Assembly: GCA_035627655.1 (NCBI GenBank)
Contig: DASPLI010000001.1
Coordinates: forward strand, 523,509-587,508
DNA: 64,000 nucleotides
Origin: Minisyncoccota bacterium
Lineage (GTDB): Bacteria; Patescibacteriota; Minisyncoccia; Phycocordibacterales; Phycocordibacteraceae
Reading direction: 5' to 3'
The position numbers and the translations under genes were made by a program. Below, one piece after another: positions 10,714 to 52,749 of this stretch. The notes beneath the pieces were generated by a model that was not told the DNA's origin, made no database searches, and worked only from the letters and a program-made list of their open reading frames with translations. Within the stretch, counting starts at the first letter, position 1, and every line of letters starts with the position of its first letter.

Positions 10714-13143
10714 TTATCCTTCGTTCCCTTCGTTTTCGCGTCGGCGCTTCCGCATGAAGAAGAGCCACCAGATAAATCCAGCTCCGACCGCCGCAGCTGT
10801 CAGACCCAGCAGGTATGGATACGAAGCTCGAGCGGTAGCGGCCCCGGCAACCAAACCTTCGGATGCGTGTGCAGTTGGGATAAGGGTGTCTAGCAGTCCC
10901 TGTTCGCGAACCTCCTCAGTTCCGAGGATCATGGAAGGCATTGCTGACTCCTCTGACACGAAATCCACCGTAACGGTTCCGTTGTTCTCGTAGACCGCAT
11001 CATTATCTTCGGGCCCATCCACGTATGTTGAGAGCGTATACGTACCATCTACGGCGGAGTCGGAAAACACAACGTCATAGGAAACCGTAATTTCCTCTCC
11101 TGGATAGACCGAGCCAAGTACCCATGGCTCCTCGCGAACAACGGCTCCTGATGGATCGCGAAGTACATCACGAAGCGTGATCGGAAGCGACGCGCGTGAG
11201 TTGGTGTTCGTGAGCACGATTGTCTGATGAACAGAGGAGTTCGGACTTGTAACGGTAGTTTGCGGTGTTGTGCGGGTTACCGTTAGTTCTCGCGGACTGA
11301 GCGTTCCAGTCGGGCGTTCAAGTACACGCGTCTCGTTTCGTTCAGATCCAGACGACGATCGAGAATCGGTACGGACCGTTGCTGTGTCGGTGTTATCGCT
11401 CAGGTTGTTATCCGTTTCTCGTTCTGTCACGGTTACGGTGTTGGTTATATCCGTGTCATATCCGACGCTCACGACCCGTGCTCGATAGGAGACTTCGGTT
11501 GCGGCACCCGGCGGCAGCTCACCCAGCGCGAAGGTAAGCACGTCGCCGTCAGTCGTGTATGGATAATCAGCCTCAATGATCTCCAGATAGTTTTCTTCGT
11601 AGTCATCTACAAGCATGGTTTCCGTCGCTACTGAGTCTCCGTTATTGATCACCGTAAACGTGTAGGTGAGGACGCTGTCGTTTATGACCGAGGAAGGAAC
11701 ATCAACCTGCTCGCCGACCCACAGATCGGGGCGGCCGAAAGCAATGTTACCGTTGAAGTTGCCGAAGATGTTTACGACGGCAAGAATCCAGTTACGACCG
11801 ACCACGGTTCCGTTTGCAATGTTCACGATATTTGCGCCGGCATACGCGTCCCCGGTGGAGATGAGGGCGGTATCTGCCCCGGAAATATGGTTGTCTCCGG
11901 TAAGCGCTACGACGCTTACGTCGTTTTCAATCAATGCTGTTGACGAAGCGGTCATATCTACAGCATTTCCGATCCCGCCCCCTGGTCCGGCTGAGGCGGT
12001 ATCAAACAGAAACACGCTGCCGTCTGGTCCTTCCATCCACGACAGCTCGTCTGGTGCGCCAAATACGTCACCAACCCAGTCTCCGTGTACACGGAAGAGG
12101 ATAGTTACGCTTCGGTCTCCAACCAGTGACGTGTTGAGTTGATTGAATACGTTTGTGACTGCGTGAGAGTCTCCGGAGGTAATCGACGAGTTTTCGGTAC
12201 TGTCGGTAGTGTTGCCACCTGATTCAGCATCTACCGAAACAGTATTTTCAACCGTGGCGGTACTGGTTATATCGACAGTTCGAGGGGAGGAAGCCCCTTC
12301 CGCGATTGAATTGAAGAATGACTGGAGGCTCGGAAAGACAATATCGCCGTCGACCCCGGCAAATGCGTTGAGGGTCACCAAGAGATATGACGAATCAACA
12401 ACCGAGGTATTTGCCATATTGATCAGATTTAGCCCTGCGTAGGCGTCCCCCGTCTCAATAGTTCCGCTCTCCGCACCCGTGATTTCGTTTTCGCCTGATG
12501 ATGCTCGAACAACGATATCGTTCTCAATCCGCGCGTCGTTGCTGAGCCGAACTTCAACTGAGTCGCCGTGTGTGCATGGTGCTCCGTCGCACAGGCCCGC
12601 GAGCGACTCGTAGTAGTTTCTAAAATCAAGCGTTCCGCTTATGTGGTCGAAGAAGTTGGAGAAAACGAACACTCCGTTTGAGTTCACGAAGTTGCTGTTT
12701 ACCAGGTTCAGAATGTTTGCAAGGGCAATGGCACGGCCAGATTCGATTTTCGGTTCTTCGATAACTGATTCAGTTGTCGTGGCTAGAGGGTCAGTACTGC
12801 TCGCCATAGTAGTTTCAACAGTAGATTCTTCAACGACAGCATCGGTTGTTGTTGTGGTGGAGACTGCACTTTCTTCAACCGTCGGGGTGGATGTTGCGAC
12901 CTCTGCTGGCGCCAGTGTTTCCTCAGCAACTGGCTCTTCTGTTGTTTGCGTTTCCTCACTTGTTTCCGCTGGAGACTCTTCCATTCCCTGATCAGCTTCA
13001 GGTGCAACTTCCGTTGACTCTGTCTGCTCGGGTTCAGAAGGTGGGGAAGCTGACTCCTGCGCAGAAACCCGAATGCTCGGAATAAGTAGGGCGACAGCAA
13101 GCAGAACTGCAATGCTGCGGGTGGGAAGTGAGGAGGTGCTCAT
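10714..13143 (-). CDS. large secreted surface protein: signal peptide, E/T-rich linker, three copies of an SG-x-N-x-I-[ST]-G...TGDA-x-AG repeat, DUF11/CARDB-like region, C-terminal TM plus basic tail
   Basis: N-terminal signal peptide (VSAQES); repeats read in the translation; C-terminal hydrophobic helix followed by RKRRRENEGNEG. Confidence 0.65.
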   Translation of the reverse strand: MSTSSLPTRSIAVLLAVALLIPSIRVSAQESASPPSEPEQTESTEVAPEADQGMEESPAETSEETQTTEEPVAEETLAPAEVATSTPTVEESAVSTTTTTDAVVEESTVETTMASSTDPLATTTESVIEEPKIESGRAIALANILNLVNSNFVNSNGVFVFSNFFDHISGTLDFRNYYESLAGLCDGAPCTHGDSVEVRLSNDARIENDIVVRASSGENEITGAESGTIETGDAYAGLNLINMANTSVVDSSYLLVTLNAFAGVDGDIVFPSLQSFFNSIAEGASSPRTVDITSTATVENTVSVDAESGGNTTDSTENSSITSGDSHAVTNVFNQLNTSLVGDRSVTILFRVHGDWVGDVFGAPDELSWMEGPDGSVFLFDTASAGPGGGIGNAVDMTASSTALIENDVSVVALTGDNHISGADTALISTGDAYAGANIVNIANGTVVGRNWILAVVNIFGNFNGNIAFGRPDLWVGEQVDVPSSVINDSVLTYTFTVINNGDSVATETMLVDDYEENYLEIIEADYPYTTDGDVLTFALGELPPGAATEVSYRARVVSVGYDTDITNTVTVTERETDNNLSDNTDTATVRTDSRSSSGSERNETRVLERPTGTLSPRELTVTRTTPQTTVTSPNSSVHQTIVLTNTNSRASLPITLRDVLRDPSGAVVREEPWVLGSVYPGEEITVSYDVVFSDSAVDGTYTLSTYVDGPEDNDAVYENNGTVTVDFVSEESAMPSMILGTEEVREQGLLDTLIPTAHASEGLVAGAATARASYPYLLGLTAAAVGAGFIWWLFFMRKRRRENEGNEG

Positions 13144-22962: not shown

Positions 22963-23037
22963 AAATACTAAGCGGCCTCGAAAGGGGCCGCTTCTTCATA
23001 TGTGTCTCTCGCTGCGCGGTGTATACTTCGCGCGTAT

Positions 23038-24705
23038 ATGACGCAAGCTGAAGCGCTTTCCATACTGCAGACAGGCGCGAATGCTTTTCTGACTGGCGAG
23101 CCAGGCAGTGGCAAGACGCACACCGTCAATACATATGTTGCGTGGCTGCGTGCTCGTGGTATTGAACCGGCAATCACTGCTTCAACCGGCATTGCGGCAA
23201 CCCATGTTGGTGGCATGACGATTCATTCCTGGAGCGGTATCGGCATACGCGACTACTTGTCGGAAGCGGATGTCGACATGATCGCCTCTAAAGAGCATGT
23301 CGCTCGCAGAATCAATCGAACGAACGTTCTGATTATTGACGAGATTTCTATGCTCTCGGGGAATGTGCTCTCCATGGTCGATCGTATTGTGCGCGAGGTG
23401 CGCAGAACGCATCTGCCTTTTGGCGGCATGCAGGTTGTTGCGGTTGGTGACTTCTTTCAGTTGCCGCCGGTTACGAAGGGAAGCGCAAGTCCGTTATTTG
23501 CCTTTGAGTCCCCTTCTTGGCGCGCCCTCAACCCGTTGGTGCTGTATCTCACCGAGCAGCATCGACACGATGATCCAAAATTTGCCGCTGTGCTTGGCAG
23601 TATTCGTCGCGGTGAGAGCGATCAGGGAGACGTAGCACGCATTGTTTCAAAAGAAGCGTCCTTGGAAGATGTTGCAGATGACGTTCCGCGCCTCTATACG
23701 CATAATGCTGACGTTGATAAGGAAAATGCAGAGAAGCTTGAAGGACTCAAGGGATCTTCAAAGCGCTTTACTATGGAATCAAACGGGTCGGAGGTGCTGG
23801 TGGAAGCGCTCAAGCGTGGCTGTCTCTCGCCTGAAGCGCTTGAGCTGAAGGTCGGAGCGGTAGTCATGTTTACAAAAAACAATCCGCTTGCCGGCTACGT
23901 CAACGGAACGCTTGGCGTCGTGCTTGGCTTTGAGCGCGGAACGAATTGGCCGCTTGTGGAAACCCGCGATGGACGCACTATCACGGCCGCTCCGCAGGAG
24001 TGGGTGGTGGAGGAGCAGGGAAAGATCAGAGCGAAAGTCATACAGGTGCCGCTCAAGCTTGCATGGGCCATCACCATTCACAAGAGCCAGGGACAAAGCT
24101 TGGATGCTGCTGCCGTTGATCTGTCGCGCGCCTTTGAGTACGGGCAGGGATATGTCGCGCTTTCACGCCTGCGGACCCTCGAAGGACTCCACCTGCTTGG
24201 CTGGAGCGAAAACGCGCTTCGTATACATCCGACAGTGCAGCAGATAGATAAAGAATTTCGTGCGGCGTCTGAGGCGGCACAAGCGGCGTTCGGCGAGCTT
24301 GAGCGAACAGGAGAGCGCACGAAGCTCGAAGAAAACTTCCTGCGTGCCTGTGGTGGCAGTCTCACGCCAACCAAAGATGGCGAACCTCGGGGCAAGCGAA
24401 CCACGCATGACGAAACGCTCTCCTATATCCAAGAAGGCAAGCCACTTGCTGCAATCGCTGATGCTCGGTCGCTGACATTTGGCACGATCGCCGAACATGT
24501 CGAAGAACTTATTAAAAACGATCGCCTGACGCGCGAGGAGGTCGAGCCGCTCATCCCTGCAGAGCTTTTGCGCGCCTTGCCGCAGATATTTGATGTATTT
24601 GAACAGGTGGGTACCGAACGGTTGACGCCGGTCTTTGCTCGGTTGGGAAAGAAATATCCGTTTGAATATCTAAAAATTGCTCGAGCACTATACCGCACTG
24701 AATGA
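23038..24705 (+). CDS. PIF1-family ATP-dependent DNA helicase
   Basis: Q-motif region LSILQTGANAFLTGEPGSGKTH; full set of SF1B helicase motifs. Confidence 0.8.
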   Translation: MTQAEALSILQTGANAFLTGEPGSGKTHTVNTYVAWLRARGIEPAITASTGIAATHVGGMTIHSWSGIGIRDYLSEADVDMIASKEHVARRINRTNVLIIDEISMLSGNVLSMVDRIVREVRRTHLPFGGMQVVAVGDFFQLPPVTKGSASPLFAFESPSWRALNPLVLYLTEQHRHDDPKFAAVLGSIRRGESDQGDVARIVSKEASLEDVADDVPRLYTHNADVDKENAEKLEGLKGSSKRFTMESNGSEVLVEALKRGCLSPEALELKVGAVVMFTKNNPLAGYVNGTLGVVLGFERGTNWPLVETRDGRTITAAPQEWVVEEQGKIRAKVIQVPLKLAWAITIHKSQGQSLDAAAVDLSRAFEYGQGYVALSRLRTLEGLHLLGWSENALRIHPTVQQIDKEFRAASEAAQAAFGELERTGERTKLEENFLRACGGSLTPTKDGEPRGKRTTHDETLSYIQEGKPLAAIADARSLTFGTIAEHVEELIKNDRLTREEVEPLIPAELLRALPQIFDVFEQVGTERLTPVFARLGKKYPFEYLKIARALYRTE

Positions 24706-24764: not shown

Positions 24765-25097
24765 ATGACCATCATTCACTGGATTGTCTCGGCCGTAGCG
24801 ATTCTTATCGCTGCGTACCTTATTCCGGGCATTAATGTGACCTTGATCGGCGCCTTGGTGCTTGCCGTAGTGCTTGCGCTCATCAACGTGTTCCTGAAGC
24901 CCATTATTACGGCACTCACGCTTCCGTTGAACCTAGTGACGCTCGGTCTCTTCTCGCTGGTCGTCAACGCGCTTCTCATCATGCTTGCCGGCATGATTGT
25001 GCCGGGATTCACGGTGGATGGCTTCTGGCCAGCATTCTTCTTCTCCATCATTGTCGCTCTCGTCACAGCGCTCTTCGGTGGACTGGCAAAGAAGTAG
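24765..25097 (+). CDS. 4-TM membrane protein of the phage-holin-family 4_2 type (YvlD-like)
   Basis: PGI(N)V...LVLAVVLALINVFLKPII...LGLFSLVVNALLIMLA pattern. Confidence 0.65.
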   Translation: MTIIHWIVSAVAILIAAYLIPGINVTLIGALVLAVVLALINVFLKPIITALTLPLNLVTLGLFSLVVNALLIMLAGMIVPGFTVDGFWPAFFFSIIVALVTALFGGLAKK

Positions 25098-26064: not shown

Positions 26065-26147
26065 CTGAAACGGCGCTTCCTCTTGGGGAGCGCCGTTTTC
26101 CCATTTCTCCGTATTCGCACCTTGCCCATACCGTATACTAGGAAGCA

Positions 26148-28877
26148 ATGGCAATGACCTACGAAGGTCCGGTGCAACCGTTGTCCTCGCCTGAGGAGGA
26201 GCTTGCACATTTGCGCGCACAGATTGAGGCGAAGGAGCGCGAGCTTGCAAGCCTTAAGAAGGAGCGTCCGCGCGAGGATGTGGTTCGGGAACGTATTACA
26301 CGCCACGTGGCGATGCCGGCAGGACATGTGCTCCATCCGGAGTATCAGATGTCGGAACCAGAGGCACGGGAAATTGCCCTCAACCTGGAGCCCGAGAGCG
26401 ACGACGCCACCATGGAGGAGCTCCGCACGCTCATGGATACGCGCGGCATCCATAACGCATTTCAGGTTCTCGACAAGCTCAAGAACCCGCATCTTGAAGA
26501 TGATTTCCATCGCTATCTCGTTGCCTATGTGACCGCCGGCATGCCCATCAAGGGCCTCAATGAGAGCGAGCCGACCTGGAAGGCGCTTCATATGACCCTG
26601 TATGACATTGCGCTTCCAGAAATGGCGAATGACGAGGATCGCAACCGTTCCTTCAAGGAGCTGGTGTCTTCCATGGAGCAGTTTTATGGCGGCATGCGCG
26701 CTGTTGAGGATGCGTATGCGGGAGAGCCGGCTTATTTCTCGATGGAGCTTGCGATTCCTGCGGATAAGCCGCACCTGCGCTTTTATGCAGCCGTTCCAAA
26801 CGGTCGTCGTGATCTGTTTGAAAAACAGGTACTCGCTATTTTCCCGAACGCGGTTATCACGCCCGAACCAAACGACTACAACCTCTTCGTACAGGATGGT
26901 GAATCGGTTGGCTCCGTTGCAAAGCTTGCCAAGCGCCATCCGTATGCACTCAAGGACTATCCCGAGTTTGACTACGATCCGCTGAACTCTCTATTGAATG
27001 CGTTTGCCAAGCTTGAAGCGGAAGGAGAAGGAGCAGCGCTCCAGATCCTCATTCGTCCGAAGGGGGACCAATATCTCTCGCTGTACCGCCGAATGATGAA
27101 GGAGTTGCAAAAGGGGGAACCATCCAAGGAAGTGTTTCAGATGTCAGATGATTTCGCTGCGGAGATGTTCCGAGAGACGAAAGAAATATTCAAAGGAGAG
27201 AAAAAAAAGACGTCCGGTCCAGACCAAATGGCGATTGAGTCCTTGGAGCGAAAGATGTCTTCGCCAGTCGTGGAGACGAATATCCGTCTCGTTGCTTCGT
27301 CTCGTACGCAAGGGCGTGCGCAGCAGATTCTCCACGAGATGGAAGCATCGTTCAACCAGTATGAAAACACCAAGGGAAACCGGTTTGAATTCAAGCGACT
27401 TTCTGGCGGTGCGCTTCGTGGTCTCTTGAAGCAGGTATCTTACCGGCTCTTCTCGCATGACGGCCTGATCCCGCTCTCGCTTCGCGAGCTTACCACCCTG
27501 TATCACTTCCCACCGAAAGGCATTACATCGTCGCCACACTTGAAGCAGTCGCGCTTTACGGCTGGTCCTGCGCCCGTGGACCTTGCTCAAGATGGCATTC
27601 TGCTTGGCACGAACTCGTTCCGCGGCACGGAGACAAAGGTGCATTTCAGTCAGGCAGATCGTGCACGCCACCTCTATGTAATCGGACAGACGGGTACCGG
27701 TAAGACGTCGTTCATGAAGACGCTTATTGAGCAGGACATTAAAAATGGCGAAGGTGTCTGTTTCATTGATCCGCACGGTAACGACATTCTCGACATTCTC
27801 GCTTCTGTCCCGCCTGAGCGATACGACGACGTCATCTACTTTGATCCGGCAAACCTCAGCCGGCCATTCGGTCTCAACATGCTCGAATACGATCCGGCGC
27901 GTCCGGAACAAAAGACGTTCATCGTCAACGAACTGCTTGCTATATTCCGACGCCTCTATGGCGACGTGCCAGAGTCCATGGGTCCTGCGTTCGAGCAGTA
28001 CTTCCGTAACGCAACAATGCTGGTGATGGAGGATCCGGCGTCCGGTTCAACGATGATGGACATTGCGCGTGTGCTCTCCGATGCCATGTTCCGCAATATG
28101 AAGCTTGCGCGCAGCAATAACCCGGTTGTGAATCAGTTCTGGACGAAGATCGCGACCCAGGCTGGCGGCGAAGCTTCGCTTGAAAACATCGTGCCGTACA
28201 TCACCAACAAGTTCGATGACTTCACCGCAAACGACTTCATTCGCCCGATCGTCGGCCAGCAGAATTCCTCGTTCAAGTTCCGAGACATCATGGATCAGCG
28301 AAAGATCCTGCTCGTGAACCTCTCCAAGGGTCGTCTCGGAGAGCGAAACGCAAACCTGCTCGGCCTCGTGCTCGTGGGCAAGATTTTCATGGCAGCACTC
28401 TCACGCGCAGATAATCCAGGCGCGGAATTCCCGCCGTTCTATCTCTATATCGATGAATTCCAGAACATTACGACCGACTCCATTCCCGGCATTCTTTCTG
28501 AGGCGCGTAAATACAAACTCTCGCTCACGATCGCGCATCAGTTCCTCAAGCAGGTGGACGAGAAGATCAAGGATGCGGTATTTGGTAACGTAGGCTCCAT
28601 GGCCGTGTTCCGTGTCGGCGAAGAGGACGCGGAATACTTCGCCAAGCAGTTTGCACCGGTGTTCTCCGCGCTTGATTTCGTGAATATTGAAAACTACAAC
28701 GCGTATCTGAAAATGCTTTCGCGCGGCGTGCCGCAAAAACCATTCAATATTCGCACACTCGCTCCGTCAGTGGGGAATAAGTCGCAGATCGACGACCTGC
28801 GTCAACTCTCGGCACTCACGTATGGTCGAGACCGAGAGACCGTGGAGCAAGAGATTCGCCAGCGCTACCTTACGTAA
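26148..28877 (+). CDS. TraD/TraG/VirD4 (TrwB)-like P-loop ATPase, soluble, with ~450-aa N-terminal extension of unknown function
   Basis: HLYVIGQTGTGKTS Walker A, LYIDEFQNI Walker B, LTIAHQ; no TM helices; N-terminal coiled-coil. Confidence 0.65.
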   Translation: MAMTYEGPVQPLSSPEEELAHLRAQIEAKERELASLKKERPREDVVRERITRHVAMPAGHVLHPEYQMSEPEAREIALNLEPESDDATMEELRTLMDTRGIHNAFQVLDKLKNPHLEDDFHRYLVAYVTAGMPIKGLNESEPTWKALHMTLYDIALPEMANDEDRNRSFKELVSSMEQFYGGMRAVEDAYAGEPAYFSMELAIPADKPHLRFYAAVPNGRRDLFEKQVLAIFPNAVITPEPNDYNLFVQDGESVGSVAKLAKRHPYALKDYPEFDYDPLNSLLNAFAKLEAEGEGAALQILIRPKGDQYLSLYRRMMKELQKGEPSKEVFQMSDDFAAEMFRETKEIFKGEKKKTSGPDQMAIESLERKMSSPVVETNIRLVASSRTQGRAQQILHEMEASFNQYENTKGNRFEFKRLSGGALRGLLKQVSYRLFSHDGLIPLSLRELTTLYHFPPKGITSSPHLKQSRFTAGPAPVDLAQDGILLGTNSFRGTETKVHFSQADRARHLYVIGQTGTGKTSFMKTLIEQDIKNGEGVCFIDPHGNDILDILASVPPERYDDVIYFDPANLSRPFGLNMLEYDPARPEQKTFIVNELLAIFRRLYGDVPESMGPAFEQYFRNATMLVMEDPASGSTMMDIARVLSDAMFRNMKLARSNNPVVNQFWTKIATQAGGEASLENIVPYITNKFDDFTANDFIRPIVGQQNSSFKFRDIMDQRKILLVNLSKGRLGERNANLLGLVLVGKIFMAALSRADNPGAEFPPFYLYIDEFQNITTDSIPGILSEARKYKLSLTIAHQFLKQVDEKIKDAVFGNVGSMAVFRVGEEDAEYFAKQFAPVFSALDFVNIENYNAYLKMLSRGVPQKPFNIRTLAPSVGNKSQIDDLRQLSALTYGRDRETVEQEIRQRYLT

Positions 28878-36148: not shown

Positions 36149-37684
36149 ATGTCGGCAGAGAAGCCTCCGCGCAAAAAGACAACGGATCCGTTGGCGAAGC
36201 AGGTGGTGCTTGGTATTGGCATTGCAGCTGCAGCGGGCGGCGCAGATGCGCTCCACGATCATTTTGAAGTGCAAAAAGAAGAAGCGCTTGTACAGCAGTC
36301 CGCGCTTGAGCGCCCGGGGGAATTGCTCCAGTTCTACACACAGCATCCGTATGCCATGCAACGGCAAGACATACCGATGGTAATTGAGGCGATGCAGCGA
36401 CATAAGCCGCACGAAGCTGATCAGGGCGAAGAGTTGGGTGTCTATATTCCGCTCCGGCTTGAGGTCTTCCAAAGCCTTGTAGAGCGGGCTCGGTTTGATG
36501 AGGCAGCGCGGGAGATTCTCTCTGCACTAGAAGAGCAGGCACCGCTTTCTGCCCGGGAGATTCTCATGCTGCATCGGAGCTCATTTCTCCTAGACGCAAG
36601 ATTTGCTCTTGAGAACTATACGAATGCAACAAACTGGGCTGAAGGTCCTGAACGATATACCGATGAGGTATTCGAGCTTATCCGAGGAAATACAGCTCTG
36701 GGTACAATCGAGCAGCGCGCTCATCTCTCGATGCTTGCCAGCCACTTTATTTACTACGAAAACAGTGTCTATCAACCAAGTCGCACCGGAACTGACGCCT
36801 TTGGCGAATGGTACAGATCTGGATACTACTCCCATAACGTTGTTTCCATTACACCCGAACTTGTAAATTCTGTGCTTGAGTGGCTCCAAGAGCGTCGAGA
36901 AGAACTTGGCGGACAGGAGGTGTTCAACCCTACCATCATCGCGTTTTATGGAAACGAACGAAATGAAGACGGCAGCCAACGGTTTGGTAATGAATACTTC
37001 CATAACGAACTTCAAGCGCGCTCCACAACACTGCATGAGTTTCGAGGTGCGGACAGCGAAGAAGATCGACAGCAGCTTGAGCGGCATCTGCAGCACATTG
37101 AGACAGCAACGACACCAATCACCGTGGTTTTTGACTCGCACGGCGGGACCACCGGCATTTGGCTTACGGGAGATTTCAGCTCTGTTAAAGAGGCATCGGG
37201 GAATGAGTTAGTAGTTAGGGCAGAAATGATTGCACAGTCATTTATTCAGCGATATCGAAACCCAGAACTGCGCGCGCAAGCAAATGCACATCCAGATGTG
37301 GTGGTTTTCGATAACTGCTTCGGCGGCGACATTATTCGCCTTGTGAGCAGGCAGCTCATGGAAGCGGGTCTTCCGATCCCTGCATTCGTGAGCACTTCAG
37401 AAGCTGGTACGTATGGGTATGGAAATTTGTCCGCACCGACTGGCTCGCAAATGGAAAACATCCTCTTCGATAAAGACCATCCAACACTTAGTGATGTGGC
37501 GGACGCAGATCTTGCGCCACGAGATCTCACCAATCCCAACCGGCTCATGGGAGATTTTGTCGTCATCCCTGCTCGGCAAGCGCATGAAATTCCCGATACT
37601 GAGGATCGAAACGGTCAGCGTATGACCGTCGTGGACGAGTCGGTACAGATTTCGGAAAACGAGTCAGACACCGCTCTTGGATAA
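36149..37684 (+). CDS. hypothetical protein (511 aa) between uvrB and uvrA
   Basis: no recognised family; internal TVVFDSHGG / VVVFDNCFGG paired motifs. Confidence 0.4.
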   Translation: MSAEKPPRKKTTDPLAKQVVLGIGIAAAAGGADALHDHFEVQKEEALVQQSALERPGELLQFYTQHPYAMQRQDIPMVIEAMQRHKPHEADQGEELGVYIPLRLEVFQSLVERARFDEAAREILSALEEQAPLSAREILMLHRSSFLLDARFALENYTNATNWAEGPERYTDEVFELIRGNTALGTIEQRAHLSMLASHFIYYENSVYQPSRTGTDAFGEWYRSGYYSHNVVSITPELVNSVLEWLQERREELGGQEVFNPTIIAFYGNERNEDGSQRFGNEYFHNELQARSTTLHEFRGADSEEDRQQLERHLQHIETATTPITVVFDSHGGTTGIWLTGDFSSVKEASGNELVVRAEMIAQSFIQRYRNPELRAQANAHPDVVVFDNCFGGDIIRLVSRQLMEAGLPIPAFVSTSEAGTYGYGNLSAPTGSQMENILFDKDHPTLSDVADADLAPRDLTNPNRLMGDFVVIPARQAHEIPDTEDRNGQRMTVVDESVQISENESDTALG

Positions 37685-45305: not shown

Positions 45306-45324
45306 TGCTATACTCCCCGGCATT

Positions 45325-45397
45325 GGGCCCATAGCTCAGTTGGTAGAGCACCTCATTTGCAATGAGGGGGTCAGGAGTTCGAATCTCCTTGGGTCCA
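45325..45397 (+). tRNA. tRNA-Ala (anticodon TGC)
   Basis: Cloverleaf folded by hand; G3:U70; anticodon loop TTTGCAA; CCA not encoded. Confidence 0.85.
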
Positions 45398-45408
45398 CCC
45401 CAGAAAAC

Positions 45409-51276: not shown

Positions 51277-51350
51277 TGGTCGGGCCGCCGGGAATCGAAC
51301 CCGGTCTTCACGCACCCGAAGCGTACGTACTACCGGTATACTACGGCCCG
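51277..51350 (-). tRNA. tRNA-Pro (anticodon CGG), CCA encoded
   Basis: C1:G72; anticodon loop TTCGGGT; 74 nt including CCA. Confidence 0.85.
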
Positions 51351-51351
51351 G

Positions 51352-51424
51352 TGGGCGATACAGGACTTGAACCTGTGACCCCACCCGTGTGAGGGGTGTG
51401 CTCTACCAACTGAGCTAATCGCCC
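51352..51424 (-). tRNA. tRNA-Val (anticodon CAC)
   Basis: cloverleaf; anticodon loop CTCACAC; 1 nt from the tRNA-Pro gene. Confidence 0.85.
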
Positions 51425-51460
51425 GAACAATTGGCACACTAACACATTTTTGTTCGGTAG

Positions 51461-51531
51461 TCGGGCCGCCGGGAATCGAACCCGGTCTACATCCACCCCA
51501 TGGACGCGTACTACCGGTATACTACGGCCCG
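51461..51531 (-). tRNA. tRNA-Pro (anticodon GGG), no encoded CCA
   Basis: acceptor, D and T arms identical to the CGG copy; anticodon loop ATGGGGT. Confidence 0.8.
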
Positions 51532-51590
51532 CAATAGGGTGGAGAATACCTTAAGATCACTTTTTACGCGTGATATAACGTCGGCAGTAT

Positions 51591-51663
51591 GGGCCCGTAG
51601 CTCAGTTGGTAGAGCGCTGCATTCGCATTGCAGAGGTCAGGGATTCGAATTCCCTCGGGTCCA
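51591..51663 (+). tRNA. tRNA-Ala (anticodon CGC)
   Basis: G3:U70; anticodon loop TTCGCAT. Confidence 0.85.
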
Positions 51664-51718
51664 CAAATATTGACTAATTTGTCCGTGTGTCGTAATACAG
51701 TATATAGGAGGTACAACG

Positions 51719-52587: not shown

Positions 52588-52660
52588 GGGCCCATAGCTC
52601 ATCTGGTAGAGCGCATCCATGGCATGGATGAGGTGAGGGGTTCGAGTCCCCTTGGGTCCA
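52588..52660 (+). tRNA. tRNA-Ala (anticodon GGC)
   Basis: G3:U70; anticodon loop ATGGCAT; two hairpins follow (52696-52726). Confidence 0.85.
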
Positions 52661-52749
52661 CCACTTGCTTTTTTCTATAAATATAGCATTATAGTACCGG
52701 ACCTTTGTCCGGCTGGGCAACCAGCCCTTCAACAGAAAGGAGGATACTC

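Follow-up and report, generated by a model that had tools for sequence, protein, structure and literature searches.

What would a coupling protein do where nothing nearby awaits coupling? Homologues of the VirD4-like type IV coupling proteins (T4CPs) are nearly universal in Patescibacteria, with 5,713 proteins in 2,918 of 3,035 genomes, and only 148 of these proteins are encoded near virB4; VirB4 itself was found in 2,417 of the same genomes and relaxases in almost none (PMC12102498). These unlinked homologues are an acknowledged puzzle, and according to the authors their exaptation could not be excluded (PMC12102498). The same question applies to a gene on the forward strand, at positions 26148 to 28877 of a 64,000-nucleotide stretch of contig DASPLI010000001.1 of a Minisyncoccota bacterium (the whole stretch is referred to as the window), the product of which very probably counts among the 5,713 VirD4-like hits of that survey. 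An earlier reading made from the letters of this DNA (the sequence-only reading) had described it as a soluble TraD/VirD4-like ATPase with an N-terminal extension of unknown function. Here, we propose that the gene encodes a two-domain, anchor-less member of the T4CP (VirD4/TraG/TraD) branch of the FtsK/HerA/VirB4 P-loop translocases, and that it belongs to a widespread, uncharacterised family defined by its N-terminal DUF8128 domain.

Domain architecture of the protein

The open reading frame (ORF) proposed by the sequence-only reading is real and runs in a single frame. Gene models in public data for an identical protein (P0001) start two codons later, at ATG 26154, which gives 907 aa. The features of the gene are listed below, the invariance of the motifs being judged across 32 orthologues.

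26148..28877, + strand: whole gene, DUF8128 plus T4CP-like ATPase, single ORF of 909 aa
26148..26540, + strand: helical N-terminal add-on, residues 1-131 (AlphaFold2 model), absent from the ~800-aa relatives
26592..27512, + strand: DUF8128 (PF26449) core, residues ~149-455, alpha/beta, predicted VirB4 N-terminal-domain fold
27513..27587, + strand: inter-domain linker, residues 456-480, low confidence (pLDDT <60)
27588..28766, + strand: T4CP-like P-loop ATPase domain, residues 481-873
27684..27707, + strand: Walker A GQTGTGKT, residues 513-520, with G513, Q514, T515, G516, G518 and K519 invariant
27906..28295, + strand: all-helical block separating the two Walker motifs, residues 587-716 (secondary structure of the model, pLDDT 50-70)
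28440..28457, + strand: Walker B YLYIDE, residues 765-770, with Y767, D769 and E770 invariant
28533..28541, + strand: AHQ motif in LTIAHQ, residues 796-798, invariant
28767..28874, + strand: conserved C-terminal helical tail, residues 874-909

Judged by its sequence, the C-terminal half is a T4CP-like P-loop ATPase, which agrees with its earlier assignment to the TrwB/TraD/VirD4 type. The Walker A HLYVIGQTGTGKTS (G513-T520), the Walker B LYIDEFQNI (D769/E770, within IDE 768-770) and the LTIAHQ motif (H797/Q798) pointed out by the sequence-only reading are all present, both Walker motifs being intact, and are invariant in the 32 orthologues. When the single protein was compared with Pfam, TraG-D_C scored above its cut-off (25.5 against 22 bits), TrwB_AAD_bind (17.6 against 20.5), FtsK_SpoIIIE (17.9 against 24, residues 494-527 only) and HerA_C (E 0.08) remained below theirs, and AAA_10 reached an E-value of 0.15. 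The top Pfam match was DUF87 (31.6 bits), but it covers only 41 residues around the P-loop (506-546). Among the NCBIfam models, the sole long alignment was to VirD4-like CD1115 (residues 483-830, E 1.3e-10) and the TraD models matched around the P-loop, the scores of both being far below the equivalog cut-offs; the VirB4 model TIGR00929 matched the P-loop only (E 0.0024). Searches of PDB sequences, with the single protein or with a family profile of 43 diverse members, returned P-loop matches only, TrwB and DotL being the best PDB sequences for the profile. In a scan of the 43 members, TraG-D_C was found in 24, TrwB_AAD_bind in 18 at E<=1e-3 (best 1e-10), T4SS-DNA_transf in six (best 8e-12) and FtsK_SpoIIIE in four, while none of the 43 matched the VirB4 families AAA_10 and CagE_TrbE_VirB. 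The recurrence of T4CP families and the absence of VirB4 families thus argue for a T4CP-like ATPase; a profile of the HerA or FtsK type, which the sequence-only reading had named as an outcome that would count against it, was not what emerged.

Further likeness to T4CPs (VirD4/TrwB/TraD/TraG) comes from the signatures of the T4CP-type P-loop core and, more tentatively, from the helical insertion, which in the AlphaFold2 model, at a pLDDT of only 50-70, sits where T4CPs have their all-alpha domain. The protein differs from them in having no N-terminal transmembrane (TM) anchor, in place of which it carries a region of ~450 residues with a predicted VirB4-like domain. A Kyte-Doolittle scan with a 19-residue window found no segment of TM grade in the protein, the maximum mean of 1.55 lying in the ATPase core (residues 734-752), compared with 2.3-2.8 for the neighbouring four-TM protein in the same scan. 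By this measure the protein is soluble, as the sequence-only reading had it.

The N-terminal half had been taken for a region with no recognisable domain, and this view did not survive. Precomputed Pfam annotation assigns PF26449 (DUF8128) to the identical protein P0001 and to all 120 listed homologues, an exhaustive search with residues 1-480 returned 971 clusters at 50% identity, and a clear structural match was obtained. Far from being an extension, the region is an integral conserved domain, paired with the same ATPase also in plasmid, phage and candidate phyla radiation (CPR) homologues. The AlphaFold model of residues 1-480 (pLDDT 85.6, pTM 0.80), made from an alignment of 43 sequences with a mean column identity of 29%, shows a helical region at residues 15-129 (helices at 15-35, 42-55, 70-78, 86-99, 101-111 and 114-129) followed by an alpha/beta domain at residues 149-451. 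The coiled coil that the sequence-only reading had placed at the N-terminus corresponds to a single helix (residues 15-35), and a true coiled coil could not be established. Many full-length matches of ~800 aa align only from about residue 145. In Foldseek searches, full-length VirB4 was the top structural match to the whole model as well as to the N-terminal model. The fold predicted for the DUF8128 core is thus that of the VirB4 N-terminal domain, and homology between the two is plausible. In solved structures of type IV secretion systems (T4SSs), VirB4 N-terminal domains form dimers, are inserted at the membrane and make contact with VirB3 and VirB8 (PMC12857230).

Six polar residues of DUF8128 (E200, D243, Q299, K369, R433 and E447; 26745-27488) are invariant across the 43 sequences. 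Two other candidates were set aside: SPIN-inhibitor-like PDB matches to residues 54-116 (E ~0.05) were weak and treated as chance, and a 162-aa ORF that precedes the gene of one distant member of ~800 aa, considered as split-off residues 1-140, scored 3.8 bits, which is background.

Conservation and spread of the family

More than 1,400 proteins match the target. The best 120 are all ~910 aa long and 66-79% identical over their full length, and the named homologues are from Parcubacteria, Paceibacterota or Minisyncoccia. A relative was confirmed in at least 566 species-representative genomes, from which 80 related loci were kept (Kaiser-, Zambryski-, Taylor- and Campbellbacteria and other Paceibacteria), 78 of them with a called target gene, and examined over +/-10 kb. 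Between genomes, the ATPase half is 80-81% and the N-terminal half 56-58% identical; the corresponding values in the same genome pairs are 85% for UvrA and UvrB, 69% for Tgt, 62% for Pif1 and 43-53% for FKBP. The gene is single-copy and syntenic, the gene order around it being partly conserved in relatives, and the GC content around it is uniform. It is thus a strongly conserved, vertically inherited core gene of Paceibacteria, which are ultra-small bacteria of the CPR, since its high identity and partial synteny point to strong purifying selection and not to the cargo of a mobile element.

Homologues with the same DUF8128 plus ATPase architecture are also carried by Bacillus phages and plasmids. 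The PHROG 5156 profile, the members of which include ~900-aa proteins of SPO1-like Bacillus phages such as SPO1 gp27.4, matches residues 149-905 over profile positions 28-806 of 824 (E 5.6e-73), and an HMM of the DUF8128 core recovers the phage protein at E 6e-19 and the plasmid protein at E 1e-12. The latter, an 885-aa 'DUF87' protein, aligns to residues 203-873 of the target (26% identity, E 1e-44). Its gene immediately precedes those for a Replic_Relax relaxase, for conjugal-transfer proteins and for a distinct VirB4 of the AAA_10/TcpF type, to which the DUF8128 HMM has no match. Like T4CPs, the plasmid homologues thus adjoin a relaxase and a T4SS, whereas the target is a chromosomal core gene without such linkage here. 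The phage and plasmid proteins are otherwise set apart from the target by their identity (22-27%), by the absence of its first ~110-140 residues and by their location on mobile elements.

In one such plasmid (Bacillus subtilis NZ_CP154917.1, 3558-13714), the DUF8128-T4CP-like gene, the Replic_Relax relaxase, the conjugal-transfer genes and the TcpF-type VirB4 form an operon. Such Bacillus plasmids are typed 'non-mobilizable' by MOB-suite; they are probably conjugative or mobilizable and missed by the typing.

Genomic context and competing explanations

Pfam scans of the ~37 large ORFs of the window returned only housekeeping or unannotated genes, including RdgB/Ham1, a Pif1-like helicase, a four-TM protein of the Phage_holin_4_2 family, PurC, FKBP, Tgt, UvrB, UvrA, UvrC, Ddl and ATP synthase. 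None of these ORFs matched a T4SS, relaxase or pilin family, in keeping with the sequence-only reading. The related loci offer a different neighbour. In about 40 of the ~50 loci of a sister clade with a 59-69% identical orthologue, a gene for a bitopic protein starts 2-12 bp past the stop of the target (e.g. L016:12750-15605 and L047:4169-6766). This protein of 500-1260 aa evolves fast, contains much low-complexity sequence and shows a single TM segment near its centre; it has no Pfam match, the proteins used as seeds being mutually 17-31% identical, and a DUF5663-like protein of ~100 aa often comes next. Neither of the two was found in the window by tblastn or by HMM search of the six-frame translation, and both are missing from the target locus of the closest relatives (L009, L011, L012 and L015).

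We lean, by a modest degree, towards the view that the protein belongs, as a dispersed component, to the T4SS of Patescibacteria, which is non-conjugative and has no relaxase. The protein would form a hexameric, ring-shaped, ATP-driven motor, which the VirB4-like domain, replacing the N-terminal TM helices, would dock onto a membrane platform; the docked motor would then hand a macromolecular substrate (DNA or protein) to the channel. The likeliest platform would be a chromosomal T4SS of the VirB3/VirB4/VirB6/TrsD type encoded elsewhere in the genomes of relatives. The sequence-only reading had named a complete T4SS locus elsewhere in the genome as another outcome that would count against it, and a T4SS elsewhere is indicated for three relatives: Parcubacteria C7867-001, -004 and -007, which carry orthologues 65-68% identical to the target, are VirB4-positive in Table S1 of PMC12102498.

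Several observations weigh against this assignment. T4SS genes are absent, by Pfam, from the 64-kb window and from the +/-10 kb of the 78 related loci. TcpF-type VirB4 HMMs found no match among the ORFs of the 80 related loci, a weak test because the VirB4 of Patescibacteria is of a different subclass. When the DUF8128 core was compared with the N-terminal domain of TcpF-type VirB4, hhalign returned a probability of 0.3%, in a test that is underpowered since the positive control, one C-terminal domain against the other, reached only 39%; with no signal at the sequence level, we claim the likeness to VirB4 as a shared predicted fold only. The ATPase half of the full-length AlphaFold2 model is of low confidence. 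Lytic SPO1-like phages, which have no T4SS, carry members of the family too, and in the sister clade translational coupling ties the gene to a bitopic membrane protein that is not a T4SS component. Finally, in Southlakia epibionticum a T4CP homologue, known only as such, is not essential, while the other T4SS genes are (PMC12102498).

The main rival is an exapted motor that would work independently of a T4SS, with a membrane partner of its own (the downstream bitopic protein or small multi-TM proteins), moving DNA or protein for housekeeping or for interaction with a host, in a role that has nothing to do with the VirB4 machine. This alternative, which we consider possible but clearly the less probable, draws on the bitopic gene that follows the target so closely in the sister clade, on the distant ~800-aa member that lies amid unannotated membrane proteins on the same strand, and on the phage homologues. 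It also accords with the T4CP homologues unlinked to virB4, one of them dispensable in transposon sequencing (Tn-seq), for which exaptation was raised by the authors (PMC12102498), and with the UvrA-level conservation, which suggests a core cellular function. On the other hand, the absence of the bitopic partner from the window and from the closest relatives means that this partner is either not obligatory or encoded elsewhere, and without a Pfam match no function can be read from it. Moreover, the only homologues with an interpretable context, those of the Bacillus plasmids, are genes in the classical T4CP position. A bolder version, which we regard as unlikely, is that DUF8128-T4CPs are a third lineage of T4SS-type ATPases linking VirB4 and VirD4, which would have kept the two-domain, anchor-less architecture of VirB4 while carrying a T4CP-type motor; in Paceibacteria it would be a near-essential, VirB4-independent motor that exchanges macromolecules with host cells through a hypervariable, surface-exposed partner.

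The remaining explanations fare worse. The neighbouring Pif1-like helicase and uvrABC genes could suggest a HerA/FtsK-type translocase for DNA repair or chromosome handling, all the more as DUF87, the central domain of HerA, is the top Pfam match, HerA structures are among the Foldseek matches to the whole model and Pif1, UvrB, UvrA and UvrC are syntenic. The protein shares with HerA and FtsK-SpoIIIE the P-loop superfamily and the expected logic of a hexameric motor, but the likeness does not go beyond the P-loop region, HerA_C and FtsK_SpoIIIE stay below their cut-offs, and no HAS barrel, FtsK gamma domain or TM domain was seen in the protein and no NurA gene beside it. The synteny, too, includes the unrelated PurC, FKBP and Tgt and is lost in the clade further away, as expected from shared ancestry alone. 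We consider this explanation very unlikely. That the gene is a divergent VirB4 orthologue, i.e. the VirB4 of this genome, would fit the soluble two-domain architecture and the full-length VirB4 recovered as best structural match to both models. This identification is nearly untenable and largely refuted already by the lack of AAA_10 or CagE_TrbE_VirB matches in the 43 members and by TIGR00929 being confined to the P-loop (E 0.002). In neither domain was sequence similarity to VirB4 (TrwK of R388; PDB 7o42, 8rtd) found beyond the P-loop, the ATPase half is T4CP-like, and in Bacillus plasmids the DUF8128 protein coexists with a bona fide VirB4 that the DUF8128 HMM misses. In addition, virB4 of Patescibacteria is described as adjoining VirB3, VirB6 or TrsD (PMC12102498), and the target has none of these beside it in the window or in the related loci.

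Scarcely credible, finally, are a role in anti-phage defence, as an ATPase of the MADS mad8-like or HerA-associated kind, and an origin as the remnant of an integrated mobile element. No other single model, from whichever library, matches the ATPase core as well as the PADLOC model mad8 of the MADS defence system (residues 505-852, 27660-28703, E 4e-15), and T4CP-like motors thus occur in defence systems too; several HerA defence models match the P-loop, and homologues are found on plasmids and phages. Yet at least 566 species genomes have the gene, which is vertically inherited and present as one syntenic copy, and its flanks, of uniform GC content, hold housekeeping genes and no defence or mobile-element genes according to Pfam, no PADLOC scan of the neighbours having been made.

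Part of this picture was already known: the unlinked T4CP homologues of Patescibacteria have been described (PMC12102498) and the N-terminal domain has its entry as a DUF, which makes the gene an ordinary member of a large family. Searches of the literature found no papers on PF26449 or DUF8128, and the retrieved passages of PMC12102498 make no mention of DUF8128, a VirB4-like fold, a missing TM anchor, the level of conservation or a downstream partner. The searchable literature yielded no description of the lack of a membrane anchor, of a VirB4-like fold for DUF8128 or of the UvrA/UvrB-level conservation, nor of the unification with T4CP-position genes of Bacillus plasmids and with PHROG 5156, nor of the translationally coupled, hypervariable membrane partner of sister lineages. 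Patescibacteria depend on other cells, and their T4SS, which has no relaxase, proved essential in the single species in which this was examined. At least the Paceibacteria version of the unlinked T4CP homologues is anchor-less, has a domain of predicted VirB4-like fold that may serve in docking, and equals core DNA-repair proteins in its conservation. We offer the hypothesis that this domain docks to VirB3, VirB8, TrsD-type proteins or a dedicated membrane partner. The family would also help in approaching the same architecture where Bacillus plasmids and SPO1-like phages have it, as well as the divergence of VirB4 and VirD4, and in annotation a defined two-domain family can take the place of 'DUF87/hypothetical/VirD4-like'.

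Neighbouring genes and other observations

Three features upstream of the ATPase gene bear on its expression and on its possible partners:

24765..25097, + strand: small membrane protein with four TM segments, 110 aa, Phage_holin_4_2 family (Pfam and hydropathy)
26071..26099, + strand: strong hairpin and T-run 3' of purC, read by eye and missed by a simple terminator scan (T-run interrupted)
26138-26143, + strand: Shine-Dalgarno AGGAAG, 5 nt 5' of ATG 26148

The hairpin after purC and the AGGAAG suggest that the ATPase gene is transcribed separately and, the downstream neighbour being convergent, it appears to stand alone in this window. The gene for the four-TM protein keeps its upstream, same-strand place in 22 of the 78 related loci, and in some, such as L005, it borders the target directly; the protein could be a candidate membrane partner, or the arrangement could reflect mere synteny. 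The distant ~800-aa DUF8128-T4CP of L089 (7693-16573) lies inside a same-strand run of unannotated genes. Their products are a polytopic membrane protein resembling ArnT, an acidic protein of 162 aa, four small proteins with several TM segments each and a secreted protein of 529 aa, and this run may encode an uncharacterised membrane apparatus.

Upstream of the target, the Pif1-like helicase carries a C-terminal HTH_40 (23002-24705, + strand) and keeps this position in some relatives. The uvrB, uvrA and uvrC genes are also grouped in the window, and a 511-aa ORF without Pfam match (36149-37684, + strand) lies between uvrB and uvrA, a position held in L005 by a histidine kinase and a response regulator. 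Six tRNA genes were located (51277-51664, 45324-45400 and 52588-52663), four of them, Pro-CGG, Val-CAC, Pro-GGG and Ala-CGC, within 390 bp and on both strands (51277-51664). The first 10,000 positions of the window have a GC content of 0.48-0.50, against 0.52-0.58 elsewhere in it, and an 808-aa protein with DUF11 repeats, encoded at 10714-13143 on the - strand, is probably a surface protein.

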